A stretch of DNA of 64,000 nucleotides, taken from a candidate division LCP-89 bacterium B3_LCP. Its GTDB lineage: Bacteria; Electryoneota; B3-LCP. Shown piece by piece: positions 8,246-57,849 of this stretch (positions are counted from its first letter, which is position 1; every line of letters begins with the position of its first letter). The notes beneath the pieces are model-generated. The model made no database searches, was not told where the DNA came from, and saw only the letters and a list, made by a program, of their open reading frames with translations. The stretch lies in assembly GCA_005223185.1 (NCBI GenBank), contig NJBN01000001.1, positions 309,210 to 373,209 of the forward strand, written 5' to 3'. The position numbers and the translations under genes are program-made.

Positions 8246-8250
8246 AAATT

Positions 8251-9348: not shown

Positions 9349-9379
9349 CTTAATACGCAATAAATGAATCTGAATATAT

Positions 9380-19763: not shown

Positions 19764-19774
19764 ATGAATTATCT

Positions 19775-21066: not shown

Positions 21067-24000
21067 GTGAAACAACCCAGACCTTTGCTTAAAGCTTTTA
21101 GCTTTTGGACTTTAGCCCTAATTTGCACCGCCTTCGCCGCCAATTCTCTCCTGAGCGAATCCGCAGAACTCGCTCCGTTTGATAAGCCCGCAATATCTAT
21201 CATAGAGCGTAGCGAGGGGTCGTTAACCTTCCGCATCGATTTCCCGGAATTGAAAGCGCAAAATACTGAAGGTGAAGCGATTTTAAAAATGGGGAAGATG
21301 CCACGTCTTCCGGATGGAAACGGATTTATGGTGCCCGGGTATAGTATCATTCTGCCTGGACATTCGAACGATCTAAAGGTCAAGGTGGTTGACGTAAAAA
21401 CTGCTATATTCCCTCTGAATCATCCTCCCTGTAAAATAAAGGAAGATGAAACCCTGACCGCCGGGAAACCAGGTTCTATGTCAATATACTCCCGTAATGA
21501 AGATGATAGAAAGATCGGGAGAATAAAGGGAGCTATTAACAGTTCACGCTGGGTATCACATAGTGATTTGGGTCAGGTTAATCACATTCCTATATCCGTA
21601 TTAAAAGTAGCGCCGGTGCGCTGGCAGGAACGAGCTTCAGAGGTGAAGTACCTCACTTCACTTGCCGTCAAAATCGATTTTCCCAGCAGACCCAATAAAG
21701 GGCAGAAGCGGGTAACACTACCGAAATCTTTAAGAAGCCTATCAGCAGACCTGCCCCTGCCGGTTTTCTCGAATCCTCCCAACAATCCACCTCAGATCAG
21801 TTCCTCCACCAATCAGGAACGTCTCAAGATCTTCATCTCTCAGGAAGGGATTTGTCATCTGGAATCGGCGGATCTGGCAAGCTGGGGAGTCAGCCTGTCG
21901 GGCGAGGATCCTCGCACAATTCGCCTGGAGAATAAGGGACAGGAACTTCCCATTTACGTTTACGGGGAAGCTGATGGACGCTTCGATGAGAATGACTATA
22001 TCGAGTTCTGGGGGGAAGGATTACACAGCACCTATATCGATCAGAACCCGGAAATATACAGCGATCTCTATACCGACGTTAACGTGTATTGGCTGTCCTG
22101 GGGGGGACCTTTGGGGGCTCGCCTGGTGGAGGAATCCGGGGAAGTTGTGGAAGTGAATGAATTGAATATGTTCAGAGCTACCTCCTATCCATACTTTTTG
22201 CACAAGGAAGATAACGTTTATTACAACCGTCTGTCGCAGGTCGATCCGGATTCCTTGAAGGAACACTGGTATTACGATGGTGGTGTATCAGCTTCTGAGA
22301 CGAGGGATTACAATGTTTTCCTGCCCTACCCGGATCAAAATTCTTTGGTTAATACCAGCGTGCGCGTTTCGTTGCAGGGATTGACTTATCCGGATGCCTA
22401 CGGACAGGGCGGGCAGCACCATGCTTACGTCAGTCTGCAGGATCAGAATTCAGCAGCATTGGAAGCTGGTTCTTCGGGCGCATCGTGGTGGCTGGGGCAG
22501 ACAGGCGTAATATTGGATGCTCAGGGTGATCAAGGCATCAATCCCAGCGAACTTATACATGGGAACAATCAACTGTCCATCTTCGTGCCGGTTGACACCG
22601 AAGCAGGTCCCAACGATACGATTTTACTGAATTGGTTCCAAATAACCTATCACAGGTTATATCAGGCTCATGCGGATTTCATATTTTTCTCTCCACCTGA
22701 AGCTGCGATGGATACATTGGTGGATTTTCGTATAGAAGGATTCAATTCGCCTCAAATCAGCATTTTCAAGTTAGGACAATCCAAGATTATCAATGCGGAA
22801 GTTATCCCTTATCAGGTGAATGATGAGACCTACTACAAGCTTCACTTCCAGGACAGACCCTATGGTTTTCGTGATTATATAGCTTTCACACCGGCTGCCA
22901 GGTTGTTACCAGATTCAACTCAGTTTGATGAGGGTTCAGATATTTCCACACAGTTGACTACTGGTGCACCGGTTGAACTTTTAGTAATCGCCAACCGCGA
23001 TTTTGAAAATCATCCGGGATTGCTGGAGTATATAGGGCGAAAAATTCTGTTAGTTGGCAGGACTGACTTAGTCTTCATAGATGACGTATTCGATGAATTT
23101 TCAGACGGAATATATTCACCTCAGGCTATTAAAGATCTCCTGCTCTTTCTCCCAACGACGCCAAAATACTTAACTCTTGTGGGTGACGGTTCCTACGATA
23201 CTCGCAATACTTACGGCTATGGCGGCAACCTGATGCCCGCTCATTATATACAGACGAAAGCCTACGGTGCGGTGGCGAGTGATTACTGGTACAGTCTCTT
23301 GACCGATGATCTGATGCCGGACTTGGCGGTGGGACGAATTTCCGCTCGAACTGAAGAGGAGTTGACCGATTTCTTAGATAAACTGGAAAAATATGAGACC
23401 GATCCTGAATCAGGAGCATGGCATAGCACACACCTTTTCGTCAGTGGGACTGGCGGCGTGGCGGGTACCTCCTTCCTCTCCATGAGTCAGGACGTCATCA
23501 GCCGGTTGGAAACTGACGTCATGGTGGAACGTTTGGCGACCGATCCGGTGACGAGTCCGTTTTACGGCGGCACCGGCGATCTGATCGAACTGTTCGATAA
23601 AGGCGCACTGGTGGTGGATTACAACGGTCACGGTGCGGGAGCAGTTTGGTCGGATAATTCACTGTTCCGCCTGGAAAACCTGCCAATGCTTTCCAATCAG
23701 GGGAAATACCCCTTTGTAACCAACTTTACCTGTTTCATCGGCGCTTTCGATGCTCCCCAGCAGAACTTAATTTTAGGCGAAGAGTTCATCTTCGAACCTC
23801 AGAAGGGCGCCATCGGAGTGCTGGGATCGACGGGACTGGGATGGTTCATCAACGGCGGCTGGCTGCAGGAAGAATTGGTAAATCTGTTGTATGACAACCC
23901 GGATTTAAGTTTAGGTGAGCTGATAAATGCAGCTAAGATCGCCTATTACGCATATTATGGATTAGGCGGTTCGGAGGAATCGTTCGATACCATGCATTTA

Positions 24001-26097
24001 ATGAATCTATTGGGTGATCCTTCGTTGTTTTTAGCTTTTGCCGACGTTCCCGCAATTGTCCCTGAGATAACGCCTGAGTTCGTTTCCTATGGCGATTCCG
24101 TGGAGATACATTTAGATGGGAATTACGGCGATTATCAGGGCAAATTGAGGATATATGACGAGTATAATTACCCTGCATTACAATATAGTCTGCCCTTTGA
24201 AGTCCCGCTGATTCCGTCCGTTTCCGGGATGGATGCGAGTTTCATCTTGCCGGCTCTGGGTGATTCTGTCTCGCTTAGCGGAGGAACGTATCGTTTCAGC
24301 TTCTGGGAAACAAGCGGGGAAGAGTCAAACCGTTTAGCTGCGCCGTTGTACCTGCTTAGCGCTTATTCTGGCAGCACGGTTGTGGACTCGCTTAACCCCA
24401 ATCCCAATCCGGTTTACGCTTCCGATGAGTTTAGAATTGAGGCAAAGCTCCTGGACGCTCAGGGGATTGACACCGCCTGGGTGCACGTCCTGATAGAGAC
24501 CAATGAAGGGATATTTATCGCAGAAGATGATCTGGGGTTAGCACCAGCCAGCATGGCTAATTGGTATCAGTCTGAAGCAGTTATTGACTCTTCATTTTAT
24601 GGCTATAATGTGCAAGACAGGGTGGTCCTTCAGGTTCATGCCGTTGACGCTGAAAGCGATACTACGCTCAGTGACGAAGTCATATTCTATATTCTGGACA
24701 GCCGACCTGATCCTGAATGGGTGGCAGGAAGCCTCACTACAGGGATGCGTGAAACCTTAGCGGTTTTATTGGTGGAAGTGGAGAACTTGGGACAGAGCAG
24801 CATAGATTCTGTGGATGTTGCCTTCTACTATGAAGGTGTACTTCCGGCGATTGGAAGCGCGGTGATTTATGATTTAGATGCAGGAATGATCACCGAAGCG
24901 TATATCCCTTCAGATTTCAGCCAACCCGGTAGTTACGACATAGAAGTTGAGGTAAACGGCGAAGGGTGGATAGATGACGCCAACCCGACAGATCCGTACG
25001 CTGCATCGCTGATTGCTGATCACTTTACCATAACGTCCGCTATTGGCACAGGGGACACGTTAAGCATCGACGACACTTTCCACGCGTACATACCGCCGGG
25101 TGGAATCACCAACCCGCAGGGGGTGATCGTCTTTCGCCAGTTAGATGATTTAGTTATCCCCAGTATGCAAAATGGGTTGTCTTTTGTACTGCAGGATACA
25201 TTGGGATACTTTGAAGGGATGGGGTTCGAATTTGACCTGTTAGGCGGCGCGGAGATTATTGCGGATTCTCTGAAGTTAATAATAGACATTGACCAGGAGT
25301 ACGATTCACTATTGACCAGCAATGATCTGGCTATTCACGTTCAACGCTCCGGTCAACCTTATTGGCAGCTTTTAGCTGGTGAAGTGCAAACTGTCTCCTA
25401 CCCGCCCAATCCGAGTTATCGTGTAACAGCTAATCATAATTCGGTGGGCTATTTCACGCTGCTGCTGAATCAAGATCACCAGGGACCGGTGGTGGAAATT
25501 TCAGTCGAAGGACAGATCTACACTGACGGCGGTTACGTTCCCAGCCAGCCCAAGATTTCTGCTCTGGTGCAAGATCCCAGTGGGGTGAACAGTGATTTGG
25601 GCACATACTGGATCACTGTAGATGGGGCAGCTGTGGATTCCAATTTGGTTTCGGTGGCGACCGACAACAGCGGACAGGTGATGACCCTCTCCATCAACCC
25701 GGTTTTTAACGTCGGCAGCCATTCGGTTTCAGTCTGGGCAGAGGATTTTTCCGGCAATCAGGGTTCAGCATCCATACAATTCGAAGTAATGGGGGAATTC
25801 AGGCTGGATTTTATAGGCAACTACCCCAACCCCTTCAAGGATAAGACCTACTTCGCCTATAGATTGACAGAACAGACAACAGAGCCAGTGGCGATTAGAA
25901 TCTATACCGTATCCGGACGGTTGATTCGCACGCTCTACAGCTCATCACCCGATGAGATCAACTATTCGGAAATCTACTGGGATGGGAGAGACGATGACGG
26001 TTCCAATATAGCTAATGGAGTATATTTCTACAAGATAACGGCAAAGCGCGGCGATCAGGAAATCGAACGGACGATGAAAATGGCTAAACTGCGCTAA
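21067..26097 (+). CDS. porU: PorU-like type IX secretion C-terminal signal peptidase (peptidase C25 fold), unusually long, with T9SS C-terminal domain
   Basis: C25/gingipain-like catalytic region (DYNGHGAGAVW ... FVTNFTCFIGAFD ... GVLGSTGLGW). A C-terminal CTD (NPFKDKTYFAYRL...NGVYFYKITAKRG). GTG start with a signal peptide. The next gene is porV. Confidence 0.7.
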   Translation: MKQPRPLLKAFSFWTLALICTAFAANSLLSESAELAPFDKPAISIIERSEGSLTFRIDFPELKAQNTEGEAILKMGKMPRLPDGNGFMVPGYSIILPGHSNDLKVKVVDVKTAIFPLNHPPCKIKEDETLTAGKPGSMSIYSRNEDDRKIGRIKGAINSSRWVSHSDLGQVNHIPISVLKVAPVRWQERASEVKYLTSLAVKIDFPSRPNKGQKRVTLPKSLRSLSADLPLPVFSNPPNNPPQISSSTNQERLKIFISQEGICHLESADLASWGVSLSGEDPRTIRLENKGQELPIYVYGEADGRFDENDYIEFWGEGLHSTYIDQNPEIYSDLYTDVNVYWLSWGGPLGARLVEESGEVVEVNELNMFRATSYPYFLHKEDNVYYNRLSQVDPDSLKEHWYYDGGVSASETRDYNVFLPYPDQNSLVNTSVRVSLQGLTYPDAYGQGGQHHAYVSLQDQNSAALEAGSSGASWWLGQTGVILDAQGDQGINPSELIHGNNQLSIFVPVDTEAGPNDTILLNWFQITYHRLYQAHADFIFFSPPEAAMDTLVDFRIEGFNSPQISIFKLGQSKIINAEVIPYQVNDETYYKLHFQDRPYGFRDYIAFTPAARLLPDSTQFDEGSDISTQLTTGAPVELLVIANRDFENHPGLLEYIGRKILLVGRTDLVFIDDVFDEFSDGIYSPQAIKDLLLFLPTTPKYLTLVGDGSYDTRNTYGYGGNLMPAHYIQTKAYGAVASDYWYSLLTDDLMPDLAVGRISARTEEELTDFLDKLEKYETDPESGAWHSTHLFVSGTGGVAGTSFLSMSQDVISRLETDVMVERLATDPVTSPFYGGTGDLIELFDKGALVVDYNGHGAGAVWSDNSLFRLENLPMLSNQGKYPFVTNFTCFIGAFDAPQQNLILGEEFIFEPQKGAIGVLGSTGLGWFINGGWLQEELVNLLYDNPDLSLGELINAAKIAYYAYYGLGGSEESFDTMHLMNLLGDPSLFLAFADVPAIVPEITPEFVSYGDSVEIHLDGNYGDYQGKLRIYDEYNYPALQYSLPFEVPLIPSVSGMDASFILPALGDSVSLSGGTYRFSFWETSGEESNRLAAPLYLLSAYSGSTVVDSLNPNPNPVYASDEFRIEAKLLDAQGIDTAWVHVLIETNEGIFIAEDDLGLAPASMANWYQSEAVIDSSFYGYNVQDRVVLQVHAVDAESDTTLSDEVIFYILDSRPDPEWVAGSLTTGMRETLAVLLVEVENLGQSSIDSVDVAFYYEGVLPAIGSAVIYDLDAGMITEAYIPSDFSQPGSYDIEVEVNGEGWIDDANPTDPYAASLIADHFTITSAIGTGDTLSIDDTFHAYIPPGGITNPQGVIVFRQLDDLVIPSMQNGLSFVLQDTLGYFEGMGFEFDLLGGAEIIADSLKLIIDIDQEYDSLLTSNDLAIHVQRSGQPYWQLLAGEVQTVSYPPNPSYRVTANHNSVGYFTLLLNQDHQGPVVEISVEGQIYTDGGYVPSQPKISALVQDPSGVNSDLGTYWITVDGAAVDSNLVSVATDNSGQVMTLSINPVFNVGSHSVSVWAEDFSGNQGSASIQFEVMGEFRLDFIGNYPNPFKDKTYFAYRLTEQTTEPVAIRIYTVSGRLIRTLYSSSPDEINYSEIYWDGRDDDGSNIANGVYFYKITAKRGDQEIERTMKMAKLR

Positions 26098-26109: not shown

Positions 26110-27183
26110 GTGAATTTGAGAATAAGTAAAGCGACATTAGTTACGGCGTTATTTTCCCTGTTGTTAATCCCATTCGCGGATGCGAACGGAACGCGCTATG
26201 CGGGTGAATTCTTAGAGATCGGTGTGGGAGGACGAGCTCTGGGGATGGGTGGCGCTTACTGTGCGCTTGCCGATGATCCTTCATCCTTCTATTGGAATCC
26301 AGCGGGGCTTGCCAGGGTTCCAAGTATTTCCATCTGGGGTATGTATTCGAATCAGTTCGGTGAACTGGGTGATCCTTTAGCCAGCTATTCGGTTTTGGGT
26401 GCTGTCATCCCTGTAACCGGGGCGGCTCTTGGAATTCACTGGGTGCGCCTGGCGGTTGATCAGATCCCCATTTTTCCTGATTATTCAGAAGATGCAGGTT
26501 ATTCATTGGAACAGAGGAAACAGTTCATAAATGGTATCCCTACCGGTTATTTCGGTGATTCGGAAGATGCGCTATTTATAAGTTTTGCCAAGATGATAAA
26601 ATTCAACCTGGATTTAGGTTGGGCTTTCTTCGTGATTCCGGTTGAGATTCCCTACGGCGTCAACCTCAAGATGGTTCGTCAGAAGCTGTACGATCAGGAG
26701 GCTTTCGGGATCGGTGCTGATGCGGGTCTGCAGATAAAGTTCGCTCTTTCGGATATGTTCGGTAAGAAATACTTAGGTGATTTTCTCATAGGAATGACCT
26801 ATCAGGACTTCTCTAAAACCGGAATTGACTGGGGTGAGGGCAATGCGGACGTTATCACGCAGAATTTCCGTTTCGGGATTGCTTATCATCAGGAAATTCC
26901 CAAACTGAATAGTGAGTTTAACATAGAGCGAGTTTCCAACACACGCTATCCTTACGAGGGGCGCTTCGGCATGGAATATACCTGGGATAAGATGCTTTCC
27001 TTGCGGTTTGGGTTTTCCCGCCTGGATTGGGGAGAGTTGACAACAGGGCGCTGGGACGACATAGATTTCGGAGTGTGGAACGCTGGCGCTGGTATCAGGT
27101 TTTGGCACATGACCTGCGATTACGCCTTTTTAAAGGCGGAACTGGGAAATGCACACAGGTTGTCCATCATTTATCAATTTTAG
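26110..27183 (+). CDS. porV: PorV (LptO) type IX secretion outer-membrane beta-barrel
   Basis: Signal peptide, then the PorV signature GEFLEIGVGGRALGMGGAYCALADDPSSFYWNPAGLA. About 357 aa, adjacent to porU. Confidence 0.8.
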   Translation: MNLRISKATLVTALFSLLLIPFADANGTRYAGEFLEIGVGGRALGMGGAYCALADDPSSFYWNPAGLARVPSISIWGMYSNQFGELGDPLASYSVLGAVIPVTGAALGIHWVRLAVDQIPIFPDYSEDAGYSLEQRKQFINGIPTGYFGDSEDALFISFAKMIKFNLDLGWAFFVIPVEIPYGVNLKMVRQKLYDQEAFGIGADAGLQIKFALSDMFGKKYLGDFLIGMTYQDFSKTGIDWGEGNADVITQNFRFGIAYHQEIPKLNSEFNIERVSNTRYPYEGRFGMEYTWDKMLSLRFGFSRLDWGELTTGRWDDIDFGVWNAGAGIRFWHMTCDYAFLKAELGNAHRLSIIYQF

Positions 27184-27186
27184 AAA

Positions 27187-27969
27187 ATGAGTAATATCCA
27201 TAAATTAATAGAGAGTAGCACTAATCAGGTTAGTCTGCCTGTCAAAATCACAGGCTGTCTATGCTTGCTAATTAGCTGTCTGGTTATTCTGGTGGGATGC
27301 GGACGTGAGGAGATAGCTGCTGATCTGATTCCACCGGAAGATGTTTTATTAACAGTGCGCAGCGCGGATACCTCACTGGTGGAAGAGGGAATCGATGCGG
27401 TTCCAGGTGGGCATTATATTTACCTGAGCTGGCTGGCATCGCCTGCCGATGATCTGGCAGGATATCGGGTATTTCGGCAAACACAGGATTCGGCGGACTT
27501 CGACATGGTCGATGAAGTGGATGCTTTTATTACCGAATATGAAGATCACGATCCTATCCTGGCGCCCAATCAAATCACCGGTCTCACACTGGGATTTTCT
27601 TATTGGGTAGTGGCTTTTGATGAGGCTGGTAATGTCAGTAATTTATCCGATGAAGCGACCTACAGATTGATGCCAACGCCGGTGCTGTCGCCGCCGGTCG
27701 TACAAGGTGACAGCCTGGTTTTCTCCTGGAGTTACAATCAGTATGATCCGCTGGATTTCAGTTTTTACGTAATCAGATTGTTTCAGCAGCAGGGATCTGA
27801 TTGGATTCCGATCTGGATATATGTCCATAACGTGCCCTTCCCGCTGGAAGCGGCTTATTATTCAGTATTTCTTTCAGCAGGAACGTATAAATACCAGGTG
27901 GACGTTGTAGGGGCGCCGTTAGATCTTCCTGCAGGCAGCGAGGCGGATCTGGAATTCGCTTTCCCTTAA
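27187..27969 (+). CDS. hypothetical lipoprotein with FN3-like beta-sandwich motifs
   Basis: Lipobox ILVGCG. LSWLASPADDLAGYRVFRQ resembles an FN3-type fold. It starts 4 nt after the porV stop. Confidence 0.45.
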   Translation: MSNIHKLIESSTNQVSLPVKITGCLCLLISCLVILVGCGREEIAADLIPPEDVLLTVRSADTSLVEEGIDAVPGGHYIYLSWLASPADDLAGYRVFRQTQDSADFDMVDEVDAFITEYEDHDPILAPNQITGLTLGFSYWVVAFDEAGNVSNLSDEATYRLMPTPVLSPPVVQGDSLVFSWSYNQYDPLDFSFYVIRLFQQQGSDWIPIWIYVHNVPFPLEAAYYSVFLSAGTYKYQVDVVGAPLDLPAGSEADLEFAFP

Positions 27970-28014
27970 AAATGTAAATTTGAAACCAATAAGTATAAAG
28001 TTCGGGTCTTACAA

Positions 28015-28506
28015 ATGATAAAGAAACCACTTCTGATATTAGCTTTTGGTCTGTTTATAGCTGCACAGGCTAAAGCAGCGGATGAACGGTCTGTTACCGT
28101 ACCTAAGCAGGTTGAGTCAGGGGCGCAGTATTTCATCGGAGATGAGAACCAGCTTCTCATGCAGGTGAACGTCTGGGGCAGAGTAGAAATGCCGGGACAG
28201 TATTTCGTGCCTTCGGATACGGATCTGATCACTCTGATATCGGTTGCAGGCGGACCGGCGGATAAGAGCCGTCTGGATAACGTACGCATCGTGCGCGGCG
28301 CCAGTGCGGGTTCAGAAGTTATCCAGGTGAACATCAAGAAATACCTGAAGACAGGCGACAGAACGCTGATTCCTGATTTAAAACCTGAAGACACCATTAT
28401 CGTATCAGGTTCCATGTGGTTTGTGATGTCGACGGTTATCTCCGTGGTGGCGCAATTAGCTATAGTAGCTAATGTTTACTATTTAGCCGCGCTGGCGAGC
28501 AGGTAA
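28015..28506 (+). CDS. small SLBB-domain (Wza-like polysaccharide-export family) protein with C-terminal TM helix
   Basis: Signal peptide, an SLBB/beta-grasp pattern (VNVWGRVEMPGQYFVPSDTDLITLISVAGGP...VRIVRG) and a C-terminal hydrophobic helix. Confidence 0.55.
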   Translation: MIKKPLLILAFGLFIAAQAKAADERSVTVPKQVESGAQYFIGDENQLLMQVNVWGRVEMPGQYFVPSDTDLITLISVAGGPADKSRLDNVRIVRGASAGSEVIQVNIKKYLKTGDRTLIPDLKPEDTIIVSGSMWFVMSTVISVVAQLAIVANVYYLAALASR

Positions 28507-28614
28507 CTTTTGATGATTCATTCGCGTATGAGAATGAAGCACGGAACGTCAACCGGGACTAATTAGCGAACACCGATAGATGTACAGGGAACGTTTCATT
28601 CCGGTTTTGAGTAT

Positions 28615-28661
28615 AAACGGGCAAAACAAGTCGAAGTTTTGCCCGTTTTGTTTTGTGTTTT
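28615..28661 (+). terminator. rho-independent terminator
   Basis: aaacgggcaaaac-aagtcgaa-gttttgcccgttt followed by tgttttgtgtttt. Confidence 0.6.
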
Positions 28662-28701
28662 ATCCAAGTTAATGCCCTAAAAAAATACATCTGAGGCGAA
28701 G

Positions 28702-29841
28702 ATGAAGCCGATAATTTCGATAGTAACCATCCTGTTGCTGTTGTCAGCCGTTTGGGCTCAGGATAGTCCGGTTGAGACAGTTACAGTACGCGGGGAAGCC
28801 ACAATTTATGAAGGTGACATCCCTGCCGCTCGTGATGAAGCATTAGTGGACGCTCAGCGAAACGCCCTTGAACAGGTTATGGGTGTGCAGATCAAATCCG
28901 AAACTGCCATACAGGATTTTATGCTTGCTGACGACACCATTTTATCGATGATTTCAGGTCATGTCAAGGACAGCAGGATCACGTCCGAGAAGCAGGAGAT
29001 GGAGTACCTGGTACTGGAAGTCGAATGTGATGTAGTGAAGGAATTGAGTCCTGAAGAAGCACAGAAACTGATGCGGAATTTTTCCTGTGTTGTTGGTTTC
29101 ACCACGGAAATAGATGGTGGCGTCGTTGATGATAATCGCATAGGGAATAAGTTAATCTCCGATCTAGTCAAAGCCGACTTTGACGTACGGGATATATCAC
29201 AAATGTTATCCTTGGAAGGATATCAAGCGCAATTCAGGAAAGCAGTTGATAATCAGGATATTGCAGCCGCACGCTGGATTGGCAGGCAGCTTCTCTCTAA
29301 TGTGGTCATTGTGGGGAAGGCTAAGCTGGAAATGAAGGAGAAAAAGGAAGTTACCGGTTTTGCCGGGGTGGTTGGCGTATATGTTTACGACTGCTGGCTG
29401 GAAGCTCGTGCAATAGAGGCGGAGAGCGGTCAGATCATCGCTCAATATGCATCAGAATTTGAAGGCGTGCAGGGAACGGGTAACACTCCCCAGAAAGCCG
29501 TCACCATGGCTATGACCAGGGCGGAGAGAGCATTTAGCAAGGATCTGCTTTCGCAGTTAACCGAATACGGAGGCAAGAAGAGTCGCCCCATAACGGTGGA
29601 AGTGGAAGGAATTCCGACGTATGAATCGTTCCAGAAAGTGAAGCAATTCTTAAGCAATGTACGCTTCCGGGATTCAGAAGTATCTGATCTGGGCTTCGCG
29701 GCGGGGGAAAAATCCACTTTCAGGTTTAACTATTCCGAAAAGATCAATTTGATCGCTATTAAACTGGATCATCTGCCCAATCTTTCCGTAATGGACCGGT
29801 CTGAAGTAAAAGTAATCTGCCGATACTCGTCCATTCAGTAA
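28702..29841 (+). CDS. hypothetical secreted protein with LPP20/FlgT-like segments
   Basis: Signal peptide (LLLSAVWA/QD). The segment ARDEALVDAQRNALEQVMGVQIKS resembles the LPP20/FlgT_N helix motif. A second similar segment lies near residue 255. Good RBS (gagg). Confidence 0.45.
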   Translation: MKPIISIVTILLLLSAVWAQDSPVETVTVRGEATIYEGDIPAARDEALVDAQRNALEQVMGVQIKSETAIQDFMLADDTILSMISGHVKDSRITSEKQEMEYLVLEVECDVVKELSPEEAQKLMRNFSCVVGFTTEIDGGVVDDNRIGNKLISDLVKADFDVRDISQMLSLEGYQAQFRKAVDNQDIAAARWIGRQLLSNVVIVGKAKLEMKEKKEVTGFAGVVGVYVYDCWLEARAIEAESGQIIAQYASEFEGVQGTGNTPQKAVTMAMTRAERAFSKDLLSQLTEYGGKKSRPITVEVEGIPTYESFQKVKQFLSNVRFRDSEVSDLGFAAGEKSTFRFNYSEKINLIAIKLDHLPNLSVMDRSEVKVICRYSSIQ

Positions 29842-29926
29842 ATATGATATGGGTAGTATAATCTGAAAGTTACTAATTTAATAGTAATTAGCTAATTATA
29901 TAAACATAATAGAGCGAGAAGATTTT

Positions 29927-31612
29927 ATGAGAACAACTGGTTGTGTCAGCATTTTTCTTATTGCATTTGCTCTGGTTTTGAACTTAGGAACAACATCCGC
30001 ATTTGCTCAGGACACACAGGAAAAATATCAGCGTAAGTCCATATCCTACGTGGATGCTGTGTTGAAGCTTGGGAATGCTTCAGATCTAATGCCCAAGCAG
30101 GAAAGGACTCTTCTGGAAGTTATCAGGCGTGAAATTGAAATGCCCCGCTTTGATTATAATGCTCTTCCCAGTGAGATAGTCGATGCATTTAAACGCGATG
30201 CTTTAAGGCGTGGAGTGCAGGACATTGACGCTTTGACGGAAGCGATGAACGAGGTATTAGTTCCTGAAATCTTGCGAATAGTAGATATAGCCAAGGAGAT
30301 GCGTGCTCAGGACTTAGTCAGTGAAGCCGCGCAGCATTCGTTTGTGGTGGAGAAAGCCAAAGAGACGGGGATTACGGCAGAAGACTTAGAAGCGATCATG
30401 AATTCTGCTTATATCTATTTACCGGTGCTGACCCAGGTAAAGGTTCATGATTCCAAAGCGACAAATACCGTTAATTACGATCTGCGTGGTGGGATTATAT
30501 GGTTTGCCGTGAGAACAGATGAGGCAGGAACCAGAGTCGAATTATTAATCAAAGATGAGGCGGTGGGAAAGGGCGCTGCCAGGCGTGATGCTAAATTTAA
30601 ATATAAAGGTCGACGTGTCAATGGACCTGAATACGCTTTCATCACTGCTGCGGAAGTGCTGGCGCAGAATCTAAAAATCGCCGCACAGAAGATACCGGAT
30701 TTCCAACTCACTAACCCTTTGGCAGATACTGGTCCCGGTTGGGTGGAATTCCCCATGGGGAAGAGAGAAGGATTGGGTGTAGATGATAAGTTCATCATTG
30801 CGGAATTCTACGAAGAGGGGGACGGATCACTGAAACGACAGGAATTGGGTATGGTGCGCGTTGCCAGGGTAGCCGATAATGTCGAAAAGAAAGCCAATTC
30901 GCGCGCCCGGACGGTTATCGGTGGTGGCTATGAACGGGGCATGCTGGCGCTGGAACATCCCCGTCTGCCGATAGATTTATCCTTTCGTTTCGGAGTCTTG
31001 CCGGTGAGCGTGAAAGACGGATACGGCTGGTTCGATGATGAGATAACCAGTAATTTCTATACGGGACAGTTATGGTTTAACTACAACCTTGCGCAGACGA
31101 CCAATATTTCTCAATTCTTCGCTTCTGTTTATGGTGAATTGGGAAGTGGAACACTCAAAGGATGGGAGATGTGGGGCGAAAATGTGCCTGCAGGTTTGTA
31201 TTGGGGCGTAGGTGGTGGACTGGTGAAGAAGTTTTACGTAAACAGGCTTCACATAGGGTTGGAAGCGCTGATTTCTTTCGCTGATTACAGTTTCAGCGGA
31301 ACCGGTACTGATCCAATTTTTAACAAAGATTGGAATTGGGAAACGTCCAGCCTTGGGTTCACCTTCAATGGGGATATAGAGTTAGCCTTAAGTTATGATT
31401 GGAACTTAGGCGCAGGCGTGTCTTATCGCTTGTTCGCTCCCACTAAAGATTGGACTTACCACTACGACAATGAAAAGATAGATTTGTCGGGTATCACCGA
31501 TCTGCCGGAGTTGGATTTCAGTGGATTGGGATACCAGATTTATCTGACCTGGTCTCTGCCTTCACTGGGATATGATCCGGTGAAGATGGCGCGGGGAGCT
31601 ATTGGTCATTAA
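29927..31612 (+). CDS. hypothetical secreted protein, C-terminal half Gly/aromatic-rich (possible outer-membrane beta-barrel)
   Basis: Signal peptide ending SAFAQD. The C-terminal ~250 aa have alternating aromatic/Gly-rich beta-strand-like segments (LYWGVGGGL, GFTFNGDIELALSYDWNLGAGVSYRLF). Confidence 0.45.
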   Translation: MRTTGCVSIFLIAFALVLNLGTTSAFAQDTQEKYQRKSISYVDAVLKLGNASDLMPKQERTLLEVIRREIEMPRFDYNALPSEIVDAFKRDALRRGVQDIDALTEAMNEVLVPEILRIVDIAKEMRAQDLVSEAAQHSFVVEKAKETGITAEDLEAIMNSAYIYLPVLTQVKVHDSKATNTVNYDLRGGIIWFAVRTDEAGTRVELLIKDEAVGKGAARRDAKFKYKGRRVNGPEYAFITAAEVLAQNLKIAAQKIPDFQLTNPLADTGPGWVEFPMGKREGLGVDDKFIIAEFYEEGDGSLKRQELGMVRVARVADNVEKKANSRARTVIGGGYERGMLALEHPRLPIDLSFRFGVLPVSVKDGYGWFDDEITSNFYTGQLWFNYNLAQTTNISQFFASVYGELGSGTLKGWEMWGENVPAGLYWGVGGGLVKKFYVNRLHIGLEALISFADYSFSGTGTDPIFNKDWNWETSSLGFTFNGDIELALSYDWNLGAGVSYRLFAPTKDWTYHYDNEKIDLSGITDLPELDFSGLGYQIYLTWSLPSLGYDPVKMARGAIGH

Positions 31613-31695
31613 TCAATGGTTGAAAAAGAAAATAGCATCAATTTCATAGAATACAATAACTGAACAATTTCAAGCCATAACGGTCCGGAGGACTT

Positions 31696-32967
31696 ATGCG
31701 CTTCGCATTAAAGACTATCTTGCTGCTGATTCTGGCTTCTTTTTTAACAGCAGCGCCACTCTTCGCGCAGGGGAATTTACCTAAGCTGAAACAAGCCAGC
31801 TTTGTCGAATCATATTCACCAGCAGAATGGATGGTCAAGGCTGCCGGTGTGGGTGGCGGGAAGAAGAAATACCGCGAGAAAAACGCCATCGAAGATGCGC
31901 GCAAAAGCGCTGTCTATTTCTGTCTGTACCTGGGAACTGATCCGTTGTTCAATACAGCAGAAGAAAAGAGCCGGTTTGCCTTTATTGAACAGGATTTCTT
32001 CGATATCAACAACGTAAACAAGTACGTCTCCTGGGAATCGGCGGAATTTACCCTGCGTGTGAAGATTTCTGGCGGGAAGGAACTCAAAATTGAGAAGGTC
32101 TTTCGCATCAACGTGGGGATATTAAAGGAGGATCTGATAAACCAGGGAGTATTGATGGCGACTGCTGATTTAGTCGCTGAGATTGGTCTGCCGCAGATTC
32201 TGGTTCTTCCGGAAGTTCCCAAGGGCGGGAATCCATTGGAAGCGATGCAAAACCGCAGTGAACTGAAACATGCCTCTCGTTCCATCGAATCCTACCTGAC
32301 TGCCCAGAAGTACGAAGTCATCGTTCCTGAACAGCAGGATTTCCTGAATAATTATACTGAAACGATGCACCTGGTCGAAGGGACTGGTGAGGATATGTCC
32401 TACAAGATCGCGCTGGCGATCGGTTCGGACGTCTATATCACCTATTCGGTTTACATCGAACGGCGCATGGTGGGGTCGACAGAAAACAAGAAGGCTTCAG
32501 TTTCAGTCAGGGCGTATGAGACCACCACTGCCCGCCTGCTGGGCACCGAAACGGGGTATTCTTACGAACGACCTTCACCGGATGAAGTGGTTGTGGAAGA
32601 AGCCATCCATGATGCCATTGATAAAGTGCTGTCCCGTGTAAACGCTTATTGGAAAGAGGACCTGCAGCGGGGCGTGCAGTATAAGATCATCTTCAGCATC
32701 ACCGGTATGTTCGATGAAGATGAAGTCGAAGACATTCAGTTCGCTCTGTCGGACGTGATAGACGCTTTTGCTACCCGGTCGAAGGAGAATATCGTAACTG
32801 ATCAGACTATGGATTACCAGGTATGGGTGAAACCCTCTGAATATGATAAAGCCAGGGATCTGTACCGTGACATTAAGGATGATTTCGCCGCAGAGATCAG
32901 CGGCGCCAAGGTGAGACGCCAGCAGATTAACAGGAAGCTGCTGCTGTTGGAAGTGGTGAATGATTAG
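31696..32967 (+). CDS. hypothetical secreted protein
   Basis: Signal peptide LFAQG. No recognisable motifs. Same strand and tight spacing with the preceding genes. Confidence 0.45.
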   Translation: MRFALKTILLLILASFLTAAPLFAQGNLPKLKQASFVESYSPAEWMVKAAGVGGGKKKYREKNAIEDARKSAVYFCLYLGTDPLFNTAEEKSRFAFIEQDFFDINNVNKYVSWESAEFTLRVKISGGKELKIEKVFRINVGILKEDLINQGVLMATADLVAEIGLPQILVLPEVPKGGNPLEAMQNRSELKHASRSIESYLTAQKYEVIVPEQQDFLNNYTETMHLVEGTGEDMSYKIALAIGSDVYITYSVYIERRMVGSTENKKASVSVRAYETTTARLLGTETGYSYERPSPDEVVVEEAIHDAIDKVLSRVNAYWKEDLQRGVQYKIIFSITGMFDEDEVEDIQFALSDVIDAFATRSKENIVTDQTMDYQVWVKPSEYDKARDLYRDIKDDFAAEISGAKVRRQQINRKLLLLEVVND

Positions 32968-33146
32968 GGGGAGGCTTATTTGTAGGGTAGACTAAGTCCG
33001 TTGGCTAACGGATGCAGTCTACCATCTCCTTTCGGTAGCCTGTGTTTCGGCTATGCCTGCACTTAGCCTACCCTACTAACTGGATTCCGGCTTGCGCTCT
33101 GAAGAGCTTGCCGGAATGACAAGGCGGACAGTCTAAATTAATAAGG

Positions 33147-33186: not shown

Positions 33187-35277
33187 TTACTTCATCAGTA
33201 TGAGTTTTTGTACGAATGTCTGGCCACCACTTTCCAATCTGGCTAAGTAGATACCGGAAGGGAGACTTGCAGCGTTGAAGGTAATTTCGTGCGAACCCGC
33301 CTGGCGGTAGCCGTCCACTAGTGAGGTAACAACTGCACCTCGAATATCGTAGATGGACAGGTTCACATTTGCCGTAGCGGGCAGTGTATATGTGATGGTT
33401 GTAGTGGGGTTGAAGGGATTGGGGTGGGCGCCAGATATTTCGTATACTTCAGGGATAGTTGAAACATTCTTAGCTTCATCGAACCACGGTTCTCCGTAAC
33501 AACTCCAATCCGCAATAACTGCTCCATCGCCATAACTGAGTTTGGTTATTTCAAAGTAATCGTCATCCCAGATATCACTGGGATAGTCACCGACATATAT
33601 CCAGTATTTATAAGTACCAGTTGGAGCCAGCGCCGGTACGTTTTGAGTTTTATCCGAACTAGTGAACAAAACGCCCGGCCCGATATTTACGTAAAGTGGT
33701 CCTATCAACGGATTGGTGAAACCTCCGGCGGGTTTCTCAGCCAGACTCCATATATCGAAGGGAACAGTTGAAGTGGAGTAGTTTTCCAACGTGACGTAAA
33801 AGTCGAAACTTCCACCTGCCGCAGGGACAGTGATGTAACTTGATTCGGGATGAAGGCTAACCTCCAATCCATACGTGCTCTGTTGATACTTAATGGTGGC
33901 ATAATCAGCCCCGGTGCCTATGCCTTCACTATAGCCAGTTACATATATATCATTGCCATCCACTGCCAGCCCTGCGAGAACATCATCTCCTGATGCTGGG
34001 CCATCATATGTGACTTCGAAATCCCTTATTCCAGTATTATCATACTTAATCAGAATGTAATCGGAACCTGCTGTAGCGGTTTCAACCGTGCCAGCTATGT
34101 AAGCGTTGCCATCTGTATCAGTAACTATTTCAGTGGCACTGCAGGACGTGCCAGCTTCATGCCAGCGTGCATAGCTTAGCGATCCGCTGCTAGTGTATCT
34201 AACTGTCTGAAATCTATAATTCCCGGAGTTTGCACTTTCACCCGTAACAATGATATTTCCAGACGGATCTCCGGCTATATCATAAGCATAATCTGGGGGA
34301 CTGCCAGGACCATCGAATCTCTCAGTCCAATATAATGTTCCCAAAGGTGAATACTTCAGCGTAGCATAATCCATACTGCTGCTACCTTGACTCCATCCAG
34401 TCACATATACCTGCCCTGAATTATTCATGTACATCGCAGAGGCTTTATCATCGCCATCACCTGGTCCATTATAAACATGATCCCACATCTCAACCCCCAG
34501 TGAGCTAAATTTCACTGTTCCATAATCATACTCGTGCTCTCCAGGAATGACGGCCTGATCCAAGTAACCGGTAACACATACGCACCCGAAATTATCTACA
34601 CAAATATCTGTTGGCATATCCCAATTTTCCCCAGAGGTTCCATAATCGGCAGTCCAAAGAAGGAGACCGTCTGTGCTATATTTCAATACCAGGTAATTAT
34701 AATCGTATACGGGTCCTGATTCCCAGTCGCTCTTTGCCGCGACATATACATTTCCGCTGTTGTCAGCCGCTATAGCTACACCCTCATCGGTATCCTGATA
34801 TGCATTTGGATTGGTATATTCTACGTGCCAGAGTAAGCTGCCAACTGGAGAATACTTCAGGGTAATCACATTGTGATGATCGTAACTTGGACCCTGTGCT
34901 GTGACATATCCTGTAATATATATGTTACCATCAGCACCTATCGTCATATCGGCTGGTCTATCAAATCCATCGCCAGAACCATTATAGGTGCGAATCCATT
35001 GTTGAATACCATAAGAATCGTACTTTATGGTTGTTATATTACCGAGTGTACTATATGAGGTCGTATAACCAGTAACATATACATTGCCATCATCGTCGAC
35101 CACACAGTCTACTGCTCGGTCAGCATCTTCATAGGTGCTGGTATAGCGCGCCTCCCAGTCTTCTACGAGATACGGCTGTGCGAAAGTTAAACTGTAACTA
35201 CAAAGGAGCGCTATTAACGCTAAGCAAAACTTATTCATACTTATCGGTTTCATCGAAATATCCTTCCTGTTTGCCAT
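33187..35277 (-). CDS. secreted beta-propeller-repeat (SBBP-like) protein with T9SS C-terminal sorting domain
   Basis: Signal peptide. About 8 repeats of the D..GN.Y(V/I)TG(Y/E) motif (GNVYVTGYTTS, GNIYITGYVTA, GNVYVAAKS, ...). C-terminal HPNPFNPTTTITY...GIYLARLESGGQTFVQKLILMK matches the type-A T9SS CTD. Confidence 0.7.
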   Translation of the reverse strand: MANRKDISMKPISMNKFCLALIALLCSYSLTFAQPYLVEDWEARYTSTYEDADRAVDCVVDDDGNVYVTGYTTSYSTLGNITTIKYDSYGIQQWIRTYNGSGDGFDRPADMTIGADGNIYITGYVTAQGPSYDHHNVITLKYSPVGSLLWHVEYTNPNAYQDTDEGVAIAADNSGNVYVAAKSDWESGPVYDYNYLVLKYSTDGLLLWTADYGTSGENWDMPTDICVDNFGCVCVTGYLDQAVIPGEHEYDYGTVKFSSLGVEMWDHVYNGPGDGDDKASAMYMNNSGQVYVTGWSQGSSSMDYATLKYSPLGTLYWTERFDGPGSPPDYAYDIAGDPSGNIIVTGESANSGNYRFQTVRYTSSGSLSYARWHEAGTSCSATEIVTDTDGNAYIAGTVETATAGSDYILIKYDNTGIRDFEVTYDGPASGDDVLAGLAVDGNDIYVTGYSEGIGTGADYATIKYQQSTYGLEVSLHPESSYITVPAAGGSFDFYVTLENYSTSTVPFDIWSLAEKPAGGFTNPLIGPLYVNIGPGVLFTSSDKTQNVPALAPTGTYKYWIYVGDYPSDIWDDDYFEITKLSYGDGAVIADWSCYGEPWFDEAKNVSTIPEVYEISGAHPNPFNPTTTITYTLPATANVNLSIYDIRGAVVTSLVDGYRQAGSHEITFNAASLPSGIYLARLESGGQTFVQKLILMK

Positions 35278-35370
35278 TGTTATGATTTGCTAAATATACA
35301 AAATTAAACATACAATGTCAATAGATTTAACAAAATAGTTGAAATATTTTATAGTTGTCATTAATCCAGA

Positions 35371-35400
35371 TACAAAAACTGCCCTCTCAAGGGCAGTTCA
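35371..35400 (-). terminator. rho-independent terminator for the 35423-37636 gene
   Basis: ctgccct-ctcaa-gggcag with a T-run on the minus strand (plus strand shows acaaaaactgccctctcaagggcagtt). Confidence 0.5.
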
Positions 35401-35422
35401 TAATAAAGTACTCGATTCAGAC

Positions 35423-37636
35423 CTATTTTATGAGTACAAGCTTCTGTACGGACTTCTGACCACCGCTTTCCAATCTGGCTAAGTAGATACCGGAAGGGAG
35501 ACTTGCAGCGTTGAAGGTAATTTCGTGCGAACCCGCCTGGCGGAAGCCGTCCACTAATGAGGTAACAACTGCACCTCGAATATCGTAGATGGACAGCTTC
35601 ACTTTTGCCTCAGTGGGTAGTGAGTAGGAAATGGTTGTAGTGGGGTTGAAGGGATTGGGGTGGGCAGGATGGAATTCAAATGTTGACGGCGTTAGAATCA
35701 TCGCTTCCAATTCCTCGCTGAAGATGACGTTAGGTGTACCCAGCGGAATCACACCAGCGGCGACAGTCTGTGCCTGATTCAGTGTCTCGGCAATATCTTT
35801 TGCCAGTTCATCATCGACACCCAGTAGGTCCTGGATATAAACTATTGCCTGGGATACTGTTGCGCCATCATCAGAGGCATCCATGTATTGCCCCAGTTTA
35901 TCCGATACCACGTTTAGTAGCAGTGCTAGATATTGCTGACAAGCCCTCTCATACATGCTGCTTCCGCCCTGATTGATGTTAAGTATGTATTCCAGATCGT
36001 CCATAGTCAAAGCAGTGACAGGTGTGCCGACATAGGTGACTCCATCAACTTCGATAGAATTCACCGTGTTCGAGTAGAAGTGATCGAAGATTTCCTGAGA
36101 AAAACCTAACAGTTCATCTTCGGAGTACTGAGGATTTCCTTTGCCCGATTGATTAGCCTTAACCTGATGCTTCCAGAAACCTTTGGAGCGGGCGTCGTTG
36201 GTGGTTACAAGCGGAGTAAGAACGAAATCAACTGTGTCGGTTTCACCGGCATCCAGCTCAACGGGTACATCATTCTGATTCACAGCAAAGCCTAACGGTT
36301 CTACCAATTCGACGATGTAGTCACCGGGATCTATGTCAGGAAAGGAATACTCGCCGTTTTCATCCGTTAAGGTGGATTCGAGGAGTTGACTTCCATCATC
36401 CAAAAGGTCGATGGTAACACCCTGATAGGGTGGGGTGACGGTGCCAGCGATGTGGGCTATTGGCGGTACAGGTCCCTCTATCTTTAACAGCCAAAAATCT
36501 CTTGAACCTGCACCGAAAGAGTAAGAATTACCGAGTACTAGAATATTTCCATCTTCAGCGTGAACCGCAACTCCAGTAGTTTCTTGATTTGGACCGCCGT
36601 AAGTTGTGTCCCATATGGTCGTACCTACCGAGTCTACTTTCATTAACCAATAATCGTAGCTCCCAGCCCCTTTTGAATTTGTATATCCGGTTAACAGATA
36701 ACCACCATCTCCTGAGGCGATAACAGAACGGCAATCGTCCTCTCCCGATCCTTCATAACTTTTCGACCAGATAGAATCACCATTTGCATTGACGCAGAAC
36801 AACCACATATCATAGTTCCCAGTCTTTTGGGTTAGTCCGCCCATAAGGAAATTTCCGTCACCTTTTGGCAAGATAGTATAGAATCCATCCGAACTGGATG
36901 TTCCATAATGCTTCGACCAGAGCGAATCACCTTCTGCATCAACTTTTAGCAAATACCCGCGATCCGGCGAAGATCCGAAAGGATCAGAAAATCCCGCTAA
37001 TAAAAATCCGCCGTCGCCTGCGGGAATAATGGAGGATGCAGCATCAGTAGCTGTAAGACCATAGGTTTTCGACCATAGGGTGTTACCCAGGGAGTCCACT
37101 TTCACGAGCCATATATCTTCATCTCCTGCACCGAAGGATTTAGTGTTTCCCGTAAGCAGGAAACCACCATCACCGGAAGAGACCATCGCGTTCAAATTAT
37201 CATCTGCCGATCCGCCGTAGGTGTGAGACCAAACAGTGTGACCTGTGGCATCAATCTTCAAAACATACCAATCATATCCTCCAGCACCGTAAGACTTGGT
37301 ACGACCACCTAAAAGGTAGTTCCCATCTCCAGCGGAAATAATGGAAGTCGCATATTCGTTACCACTACCACCATATGTAGAATCCCAGACTTGATTACCA
37401 AAATTGTCCACCATGATAAGCCACATATCCCCATCGCCTACTCCGAACGAGTGTGTTCCTCCGGCCAAGAGGAAATTGCCATCGCTTGTTTGGATAATAT
37501 CCGTTGCTACTTCTGAGTTACTACCCCCATATGTCTGGGTCCACAACACTTCTGGCGCTTGCGCAAAAGCAACCGCTCCAGTTAGCACTACCAGTACAAC
37601 CACTACTACAAAACCTTTAACATGACTGTTCTTCAT
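35423..37636 (-). CDS. secreted repeat protein (about 9 tandem ~45-aa beta-propeller-like repeats) with T9SS C-terminal sorting domain
   Basis: Repeats of GGS..D.A.S(I/V)....DGG(Y/F)LL.G.T.S(F/Y)GAG..D.WL.K.D..G...W..TYG. The C-terminal ~90 aa are near-identical to the CTD of the upstream gene. Start chosen at the internal Met before the signal peptide (MKNSHVKGFVVVVVLVVLTGAVAFAQA). Confidence 0.7.
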   Translation of the reverse strand: MKNSHVKGFVVVVVLVVLTGAVAFAQAPEVLWTQTYGGSNSEVATDIIQTSDGNFLLAGGTHSFGVGDGDMWLIMVDNFGNQVWDSTYGGSGNEYATSIISAGDGNYLLGGRTKSYGAGGYDWYVLKIDATGHTVWSHTYGGSADDNLNAMVSSGDGGFLLTGNTKSFGAGDEDIWLVKVDSLGNTLWSKTYGLTATDAASSIIPAGDGGFLLAGFSDPFGSSPDRGYLLKVDAEGDSLWSKHYGTSSSDGFYTILPKGDGNFLMGGLTQKTGNYDMWLFCVNANGDSIWSKSYEGSGEDDCRSVIASGDGGYLLTGYTNSKGAGSYDYWLMKVDSVGTTIWDTTYGGPNQETTGVAVHAEDGNILVLGNSYSFGAGSRDFWLLKIEGPVPPIAHIAGTVTPPYQGVTIDLLDDGSQLLESTLTDENGEYSFPDIDPGDYIVELVEPLGFAVNQNDVPVELDAGETDTVDFVLTPLVTTNDARSKGFWKHQVKANQSGKGNPQYSEDELLGFSQEIFDHFYSNTVNSIEVDGVTYVGTPVTALTMDDLEYILNINQGGSSMYERACQQYLALLLNVVSDKLGQYMDASDDGATVSQAIVYIQDLLGVDDELAKDIAETLNQAQTVAAGVIPLGTPNVIFSEELEAMILTPSTFEFHPAHPNPFNPTTTISYSLPTEAKVKLSIYDIRGAVVTSLVDGFRQAGSHEITFNAASLPSGIYLARLESGGQKSVQKLVLIK

Positions 37637-37789
37637 TTTTCTCTCCTTGTTAATTTGATATTTTTCCTTTTCGATCTTGCATATCGATGTGATTTGTATT
37701 ATAATAACCACGACCTGAATTTCAAAATGATAAATTGTACCTTAATGGGCAATTGATAGGCATTTCAGACACAATCCCGTATCTCCAGC

Positions 37790-55457: not shown

Positions 55458-55475
55458 ATAATGGTGTTATTTTGT

Positions 55476-56801: not shown

Positions 56802-56808
56802 AAGCCGG

Positions 56809-57438: not shown

Positions 57439-57441
57439 AAT

Positions 57442-57849
57442 CTATTTAGGACCCGAAGGTACGGTAACTAACCCAACGTCCACAGCGCCAGCTTTCCTTA
57501 GAATATCCAGCGCCGATACAATTTCCTGATAGGGAAGTTCACCATCAGCGCGTACGAAAACCGGTCGGGGATTTTCCGGTGAAAAGATCTGCCTGAAGGC
57601 GCTGGTGAAGTCTTCCTTAGTGACCTGACTGGCATCTATGAAATAAATGCCGTTCTTGCCCAGAGTTATTTCGATGCCTTCCTGCGACCGTGGCTGGGCG
57701 CGTGTCGAAGTCGGGAGACTGATATCATATACGCTCTTCAACATTGGTGCGCTGATCATAAAGATAATCAGCAAAACCAGGAAGACGTCTACTAAAGGAG
57801 TGACGTTGATGTCAGCCATGCGCGACTGTTCGAACTGCACCTGATTCAT
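57442..57849 (-). CDS. tolR: TolR/ExbD biopolymer transport protein
   Basis: INVTPLVDVFLVLLIIFM signature. Confidence 0.8.
   Translation of the reverse strand: MNQVQFEQSRMADINVTPLVDVFLVLLIIFMISAPMLKSVYDISLPTSTRAQPRSQEGIEITLGKNGIYFIDASQVTKEDFTSAFRQIFSPENPRPVFVRADGELPYQEIVSALDILRKAGAVDVGLVTVPSGPK

Follow-up and report, generated by a model that had tools for sequence, protein, structure and literature searches.

The stretch of DNA analysed here (64,000 nucleotides, called the window in the following) stems from the candidate division LCP-89 bacterium B3_LCP, a member of the FCB group (Fibrobacterota, Chlorobiota, Bacteroidota). It contains five genes for secreted proteins, abbreviated G1 to G5 (27187-32967), located 3' of genes for a PorU-like and a PorV-like protein, relatives of type IX secretion system (T9SS) components. 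We conclude with a probability of roughly 0.6 that this block consists of two independent transcription units, which happen to lie side by side in LCP-89 and in close relatives of this lineage, and that the second unit encodes a scaffold. Module A comprises the porU-like and porV-like genes together with G1 and G2, and module B comprises G3, G4 and G5. The split into these two modules is well supported, and structural models suggest that module B specifies an outer-membrane-anchored periplasmic scaffold, possibly with the shape of a ring.

Two probable transcription units from the porU-like gene to G5

Along the + strand PorU-like, PorV-like, G1, G2, G3, G4 and G5 follow one another at distances of 12, 3, 45, 195, 85 and 83 bp. 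Between G2 and G3, the spacer of 195 bp holds the strongest terminator-like site of the region, an intrinsic terminator with a 13-bp stem followed by a T-run (28615-28648, + strand), which closes module A. An earlier note, made from the sequence of the window, had described G1 to G5 as a single compact block, a description that fails at this spacer. A hairpin with a T-run is also present in the G2-G3 spacer of the related loci L005, L006/L086, L009, L010 and L094. The stem sequences differ among these loci, and the recurrence of the hairpin with differing stems points to selection for termination. A scan for sigma-70 promoters remained at the level of shuffled sequences (18 sites versus 18.6 expected), and no promoter is claimed.

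Six further contigs (L003/L011, L005, L008, L009, L010 and L094) show all seven genes in this order. They belong to LCP-89, to one metagenome-assembled genome (MAG) labelled Zixibacteria and to unclassified MAGs; L006 and L086, both truncated, fit the same arrangement. Conservation of the block 3' of porV in related genomes, which the earlier note had suggested checking, is thereby found. In similarly related genomes the two halves were found apart. The contigs L088 and L089 contain PorU-PorV-G1-G2 alone, followed by genes of alternative complex III and with no G3, G4 or G5 within 10 kb. The contigs L092 and L093 contain G3-G4-G5 alone, and PorU, PorV, G1 and G2 are absent there. Downstream of module B, L093 shows the same dnaX-ybaB-recR-POR synteny as the window with no porUV upstream, so that the adjacency of modules A and B looks like a local rearrangement.

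Signal and cleavage sites were read from the sequence by eye. The open reading frames and an N-terminal hydrophobic segment of the signal type in all five proteins bear out the earlier description of five same-strand genes with signal peptides. AXA-like sites are visible in G2 (AKA/A), G3 (VWA/Q), G4 (AFA/Q) and G5 (LFA/Q), and G1 is the only one of the five with a lipobox (LVGC). G3 and G5 are consequently predicted not to be lipoproteins. Of the ring-building lipoproteins that had been proposed for this block, the ring-type domains related to FlgT and LPP20 were recovered as described below, whereas the lipidation was not.

The G4-G5 core is conserved across FCB phyla

Using the G5 alignment we retrieved 80 species-representative genome loci, 67 of them with enough upstream sequence to be informative. 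In 59 of these 67 loci G4 is located directly upstream of G5, in the same orientation and at a median distance of 55 bp. The identity of G5 across phyla is 43-52%. The loci carry the labels LCP-89, Zixibacteria, Latescibacterota, Kryptoniota, Neomarinimicrobiota, Calditrichota, Cloacimonadota, Ignavibacteria, Bacteroidota, Fibrobacterota and Gemmatimonadota. Paralogues of the LPP20 family (~450, 190 and 250-320 aa) stand behind G4-G5 in 69 loci. Homologues of PorU, PorV, G1, G2 and G3 beside G4-G5 were detected in the LCP-89-like clade only. The G4-G5 core is ancient and conserved across the FCB superphylum, and module B of the window can be regarded as its local form, in which G3 accompanies the core; elsewhere its companions are LPP20-family proteins.

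Some versions of the cluster contain additional genes. In Kryptoniota it is extended (11207-19154 in L041, Ca. Kryptonium thompsonii; also in L001/L021) by three LPP20 genes, DUF454, a CsgG-like gene with a Glucodextran_B domain, a gene for an LPP20 protein with DUF4384 and a gene for a fusion of a caspase (Peptidase_C14) with an outer-membrane beta-barrel. In MAGs with the label Bacteroidota or Chitinophagaceae, a Big_5 Ig-like lipoprotein is encoded between G5 and the LPP20 genes (6642-7736 in L050; family f12 in L023, L036, L046, L049 and L077), which is loosely analogous to G1. Within the window, a match of the small-LPP20 profile at 54855-55457 (E = 2e-4) was rejected, as it corresponds to Pal of the Tol-Pal operon.

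Proteins of module B

The first gene of module B, G3 (28702..29841, + strand, 379 aa), encodes a secreted, unlipidated protein of the FlgT_N/FlgP type with an SHS2 domain. It matches the Pfam family FlgT_N with 37.3 bits (cut-off 28.8, E = 4e-9), which confirms the earlier assignment of an LPP20/FlgT-like protein, and a profile of its residues 38-111 aligns without a gap to residues 87-160 of FlgP from C. jejuni (9hmf_C, E = 4.7e-6). An SHS2-like fold is common to FlgP, Lpp20 and FlgT, and ring formation has been tied to an insertion that follows the helix of SHS2 (Drobnic et al., PMC12222027). The gapless alignment suggests that G3 retains the SHS2/hairpin region of FlgP that is linked to ring formation. 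The family of G3 contains 1222 clusters with a typical length of ~375 aa, and FlgT_N was found in 45 of 59 sampled members. Pfam matches to FlgT_M or FlgT_C were found in none of these 59 members and in none of G3, G4 and G5. In comparison with the FlgP/LPP20 family (IPR024952; basal disk of C. jejuni, 9hmf; Lpp20 of H. pylori), the N-terminal domain of G3 aligns to FlgP, and two or three genes of the LPP20 family follow the G4-G5 core in most phyla. FlgP and Lpp20 are small lipoproteins, whereas the longer G3 has extra domains and no lipobox.

The folds of G4 and G5 were derived from AlphaFold2 models, and structural matches were identified with Foldseek. G4 (29927..31612, + strand, 561 aa), which is identical to CEE37_01345, gave a model with a predicted local distance difference test (pLDDT) score of 89.8 and a predicted template modelling (pTM) score of 0.83. 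The model begins with an alpha/beta region with very long beta-hairpins, followed by a small beta domain and a C-terminal barrel; the periplasmic part (~residues 35-345) is FlgT-like. The barrel is formed by residues 349-543 with eight long strands, in agreement with the barrel-like C-terminus noted earlier for one of the proteins. Its target-normalised TM-scores against OmpA, NspA, OmpW and Ail are 0.46-0.73. In Pfam only a sub-threshold match to OMP_b-brl_2 was obtained (20.1 bits versus 27). The best Foldseek matches of G4 are 8z5n (5.2e-10, chain presumed to be FlgT) and FlgT in 3w1e (2.8e-9), with alignments over about 342-350 columns, and eight-stranded barrels come next. G4 shares with OmpA, OmpW, NspA and Ail the eight-stranded barrel formed by its C-terminal 200 residues; it differs from them in the FlgT-like periplasmic body of ~310 residues before the barrel, and the peptidoglycan-binding OmpA_C domain is absent from G4.

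G5 (31696..32967, + strand, 423 aa) is identical to CEE37_01350 and belongs to the Pfam family DUF6175 (PF19672; 29.3 bits, cut-off 23). The precomputed Pfam column contains PF19672 for nearly all listed homologues of G5, and several of them are named DUF6175. The model (pLDDT 85.8) shows three alpha/beta domains resembling FlgT, CsgG and PelC. Foldseek returned FlgT (3.7e-9), CsgG (2.6e-5) and PelC (1.3e-4) and in addition HpaA, GNA1162 and LptE-type lipoprotein folds; the alignments of G5 with FlgT extend over about 303-305 columns (E = 4e-9 to 1.5e-8). Directly 3' of the G5 stop codon we observed a structured element of ~115 nt (32964-33080). It contains nested hairpins closed by GUAGGGUAG...CUACCCUAC, with a minimum free energy of -52.5 kcal/mol (z = -2.85 versus shuffled sequences), and could be a terminator or an element similar to repetitive extragenic palindromes (REP). 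An Rfam scan of 20.5-33.4 kb, which includes this element, gave no match.

FlgT is a periplasmic, outer-membrane-associated and ring-forming protein (PMC7693769, PMC12222027), and the H-ring beneath the outer membrane of Vibrio is built of FlgT, FlgO and FlgP (PMC7693769). Vibrio FlgT (H-ring, 3w1e; LPHT ring, 8z5n) is the top structural match of both G4 and G5, and G3 contains FlgT_N and has a length similar to that of the FlgT chains in the PDB (352-356 residues). The differences are that G4 and G5 have no sequence similarity to FlgT and do not match FlgT_N in Pfam, that a flagellar context is missing and that G4 is fused to an outer-membrane barrel. For G5 a second comparison is of relevance, since its middle domain shares the alpha/beta lipoprotein fold of CsgG, PelC, GNA1162 and HpaA, several of which form 9- to 12-mer rings beneath the outer membrane. 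In contrast to these proteins G5 is unlipidated, has no match to the CsgG family in Pfam and contains no hairpins of the membrane type; the long hairpin at residues 246-275 carries charges and is not membrane-like.

A model for module B

On the basis of these models G4 would anchor a complex in the outer membrane and supply a FlgT-like body on the periplasmic side. The soluble, unlipidated proteins G3 and G5 would assemble on the periplasmic part of G4 through their SHS2 and TolB-N/CsgG-type domains. Together the three proteins may form an oligomeric plate or ring beneath the outer membrane, as is the case with FlgT, FlgP, CsgG and PelC; the physical assembly and the ring geometry are proposed by analogy with these proteins. 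According to the model of G4, its eight-stranded barrel, which is the sole barrel of the block, would serve as an anchor and not as a channel. A barrel of this size is too small for a pore, and a structural or scaffolding role is therefore likelier than a role in export.

Several observations weigh against this interpretation. The similarity of G4 and G5 to FlgT was obtained with predicted models, and although the Foldseek probability is 1.00, the TM-scores are only 0.19-0.30 and the root mean square deviations are 12-19 Å. A low TM-score combined with a high deviation is expected if the same domains are differently arranged. Searches with sequence profiles of G4 and G5 against the PDB sequences yielded no match. 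A profile-profile comparison (hhalign) of G3 with the LPP20 proteins located 3' of G5 elsewhere resulted in probabilities of 2.5-11%, and because this relation is insignificant we do not claim orthology of G3 with the LPP20 proteins of other phyla. Furthermore, in the three other lineages inspected, the genes of the G3 family stand in unrelated contexts with FHA, kinase and PP2C genes. Finally, that modules A and B adjoin in at least six contigs could be the sign of a functional connection within this clade.

The surroundings of full-length G3 relatives from other lineages in L095-L098 include FHA-domain proteins, Ser/Thr kinases, a PP2C phosphatase, FGE-sulfatase fragments and LpoB-like and FlgO/CsgG-like proteins. 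This context may represent a signalling-linked envelope module separate from that of the window.

Proteins of module A

The porU-like gene (21067..26097, + strand, 1676 aa) is the first gene of module A and encodes a PorU-like peptidase of the C25 family that has the C-terminal domain (CTD) of the T9SS. The peptidase part matches Peptidase_C25 in Pfam with E = 6.4e-66. The CTD is supported by TIGR04183 (NCBIfam, 30.7 bits, cut-off 23), and Por_Secre_tail (Pfam) gave a sub-threshold match (25.6 bits, cut-off 27). The second gene (26110..27183, + strand, 357 aa) starts 12 bp past the porU-like gene and encodes an outer-membrane barrel of the PorV/PorQ family. The best NCBIfam matches of the two proteins are PorU and PorV/PorQ, and both stay below the cut-offs: the PorU sortase model gave E = 1.6e-92 with 310.9 bits (cut-off 420) and PorV_fam gave 86.1 bits (cut-off 90), with PorV2 at E = 1.3e-26. 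Membership of the PorU2 and PorV2 families was rejected since the scores are far under the NCBIfam cut-offs.

The arrangement of a C25 PorU-like sortase with its own CTD, followed by a barrel of the PorV/PorQ family and with CTD cargo genes close by in the window, resembles the T9SS attachment operon of Bacteroidota (porU-porV). It differs from this operon in the sub-cut-off scores of both proteins and in the co-transcribed genes G1 and G2, which have no counterpart among the described T9SS parts. The PorU-like protein is also much longer than PorU of P. gingivalis. The NCBIfam matches of G1 to G5 at E ≤ 1 include no T9SS family, in accordance with the earlier remark that none of them is recognisable as a described T9SS part, and beyond the porU-like and porV-like genes no other T9SS core genes were found within the window. 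Two large proteins with beta-propeller repeats are encoded on the - strand at 33187-37711, converging on G5. Both end with near-identical T9SS CTDs (Por_Secre_tail, E about 2e-11), which indicates that the organism uses T9SS cargo.

G1 (27187..27969, + strand, 260 aa) starts 3 bp past porV and encodes a lipoprotein with two beta domains resembling fibronectin type III (FN3) domains; the start annotated by NCBI is 26 codons further in (it would be 27265). Gly37-Cys38 of the lipobox are invariant, Cys38 across 13 homologues. A search of 5.8 billion clusters yielded just 11 homologues, and G1 was found in the LCP-89-like clade only. No Pfam match was obtained. The earlier description of G1 as an FN3-like lipoprotein holds with regard to the lipidation, whereas the FN3 likeness is weakly supported: the best fibronectin match in the PDB has E = 0.016, FN3-type motifs are visible and the UniRef name is fibronectin-like.

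G2 (28015..28506, + strand) corresponds to the 163-aa SLBB protein with a C-terminal transmembrane segment that had been recognised before. It contains a signal peptide with a site of the SPI type, a single SLBB domain (PF10531, residues 51-105, 29.2 bits versus a cut-off of 27) and a hydrophobic C-terminal membrane anchor that ends with Arg/Lys. At E ≤ 1 Pfam gives just SLBB and SLBB_2, and the Poly_export (PES) domain PF02563 is absent. In NCBIfam, G2 weakly matches the C-terminal portions of EpsE, EpsY and the PEP-CTERM export proteins. The C-terminal helix is uniformly hydrophobic, with a mean Kyte-Doolittle (KD) value of 2.06 and a hydrophobic moment (muH) of at most 0.22, in contrast to the outer-membrane helix in the compared tail of Wza from E. 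coli, which is amphipathic (muH up to 0.56, KD < 0.4). The helix of G2 resembles a stop-transfer anchor, and the protein is probably located at the inner membrane. A motif of this helix, QLAIVANVYYLA, is invariant in 7 homologues, and its invariance hints at a specific helix-helix contact. A metagenome scan with the G2 alignment returned 7 relatives, all of them close.

With respect to Wza and other outer-membrane polysaccharide export (OPX) proteins, G2 thus has one of five features, a single SLBB domain. The Poly_export domain, the lipid signal, the amphipathic helix and an operon for polysaccharide synthesis or a polysaccharide co-polymerase (PCP) are missing. The operon of G2 (PorU-PorV-G1-G2) contains no polysaccharide-synthesis genes and no genes for Wzc, Wzx or Wzy, and the glycosyltransferase family 2 (GT2) genes of the window are ~18 kb away, past the divergently oriented Bat operon. 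As judged from its sequence, G2 is not Wza-like outside the SLBB domain.

Module A is probably a T9SS operon for the processing and attachment of cargo, extended by two lineage-specific accessories. G1 would be an outer-membrane lipoprotein with FN3-like domains, and G2 would expose a periplasmic SLBB domain, probably tethered to the inner membrane by the C-terminal stop-transfer helix. A role of the two proteins at the PorU/PorV complex is something we infer solely from co-transcription.

Alternative explanations

A more far-reaching version of the scaffold model, which we consider speculative and rather doubtful, is that G4, G5 and their SHS2 partners (G3 here, LPP20 elsewhere) constitute a non-flagellar, outer-membrane-anchored periplasmic ring or disk ancestral to the FCB group. 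Such a structure would be a free-standing relative of the H-ring and the basal disk (FlgT/FlgP/FlgO) and might brace or bush another envelope machine, for example the T9SS in the LCP-89 clade, in which the genes adjoin porUV.

It is unlikely that module B, and hence the whole block, is an accessory ring or brace of the T9SS for the PorU/PorV complex or the translocon in FCB bacteria outside Bacteroidota. Module B does adjoin porUV in the LCP-89/Zixibacteria clade, G4-G5 occurs in phyla of the FCB group, where the T9SS is found (PMC12398890), and the module is flanked by CTD cargo genes in the window, L092 and loci of Marinimicrobia. However, ~70 other G4-G5 loci contain no PorU, PorV or other T9SS core gene within 10 kb; the PorU matches in these loci are restricted to the CTD, and a single PorV lies at a distance. 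Since these genomes abound in CTD cargo genes, the flanking by such genes is little informative, and the restriction to the FCB group is equally explained by vertical descent. In the literature searched, no link of the T9SS with SLBB, LPP20 or FlgT was found.

A role of module B as an outer-membrane aid of the CsgG/PelC type in the export of an amyloid or polysaccharide, in which G5 would correspond to the ring lipoprotein, appears improbable. The middle domain of G5 matches the folds of CsgG and PelC, with the E-values given above, and the Kryptonia versions of the cluster contain a CsgG-like gene. On the other hand, G5 has neither a lipobox nor a CsgG match in Pfam, its hairpin 246-275 is charged and does not look like a membrane hairpin, and the barrel of G4 has eight strands. 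A substrate, a polymerase and a large barrel are not encoded in the conserved core.

A function of module B in the flagellum, as a component of an outer ring of the H-ring or basal-disk type equivalent to FlgT, FlgP or FlgO, is distinctly improbable. The matches of G3 to FlgT_N and FlgP by sequence and of G4 and G5 to FlgT by structure speak for it, and Kryptoniota, Ignavibacteria, Calditrichota and Latescibacterota, which carry the module, include flagellated members. But no homologue of FlgB, C, E, F, G, H, I or K (E < 1e-3) was found in the window and 98 loci, a total of 1.47 Mb, and FlgT_M and FlgT_C are lacking in G3 to G5 and in the sampled G3 family. The module is also present in MAGs with the (unverified) labels Chitinophagaceae, Cloacimonadota and Fibrobacterota, groups not known as flagellated, and FlgT is not known to be fused to an OmpA-like barrel.

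That G1 to G5 form one envelope-spanning machine for export or surface structures, with G2 as a Wza- or secretin-like pore, FlgT/LPP20-type rings and the G4 barrel, as the earlier note had proposed, is very improbable: the genes are adjacent on one strand, at least six related contigs keep the full block and it encodes an SLBB domain, ring-type domains and a barrel, but the terminator recurs between G2 and G3, modules A and B occur separately in L088/L089 and L092/L093, G4-G5 is never accompanied by G1, G2 or porUV outside the clade although it is found in many phyla, and the idea of a pore fails with the missing Poly_export domain, lipid anchor and amphipathic outer-membrane helix of G2 and with an only barrel of just eight strands.

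Other genes of the window

Divergently from porU, the - strand contains a complete aerotolerance operon of the Bat/MoxR type (12451-20779) with genes for MoxR (AAA_3), DUF58, the VWA proteins BatA/BatB, a TPR protein, BatD and an SH3/TPR protein; the juxtaposition of MoxR and porU recurs in L094. The region 3910-11925 encodes three glycosyltransferases of the GT2 family together with an LPG_synthase_TM-like protein, two enzymes of the radical-SAM type and a protein of 526 aa without Pfam match. This cluster may specify a glycolipid or polysaccharide pathway with no link to G2. The Tol-Pal operon (54025-58553, - strand) encodes TolQ-like and TonB_C/TolA-like proteins, TolB (PD40), Pal (OmpA) and CpoB/YbgF (TPR), and is adjoined by a gene for an AlgE-type barrel ('Alginate_exp', 52557-53783).

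Implications

All domains of the block are already catalogued, and DUF6175 is a Pfam family. The literature searched does not describe the G4-G5-SHS2 cluster as one unit, a FlgT-like body fused with an OmpA-like barrel or the porUV-G1-G2 operon. A full-text search of this literature found no paper that mentions DUF6175, and nothing relevant was found on LPP20 with DUF4384.

For annotation, the results imply that G1 to G5 should not be handled as a single system. Module A indicates that porUV operons outside Bacteroidota can include lineage-specific partners, and G1 and G2 are candidates for a function in cargo attachment where the chemistry of the A-LPS (anionic lipopolysaccharide)/PorZ type may differ. 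If module B indeed forms a ring or plate under the outer membrane, the FCB group would possess a wholly uncharacterised envelope structure of wide conservation, one that spans Marinimicrobia, Kryptoniota, Ignavibacteria, Latescibacterota, Zixibacteria, a part of Bacteroidota and others. The FlgT/FlgP fold would then gain a non-flagellar context, which would bear on the recruitment of the outer disks of flagella.

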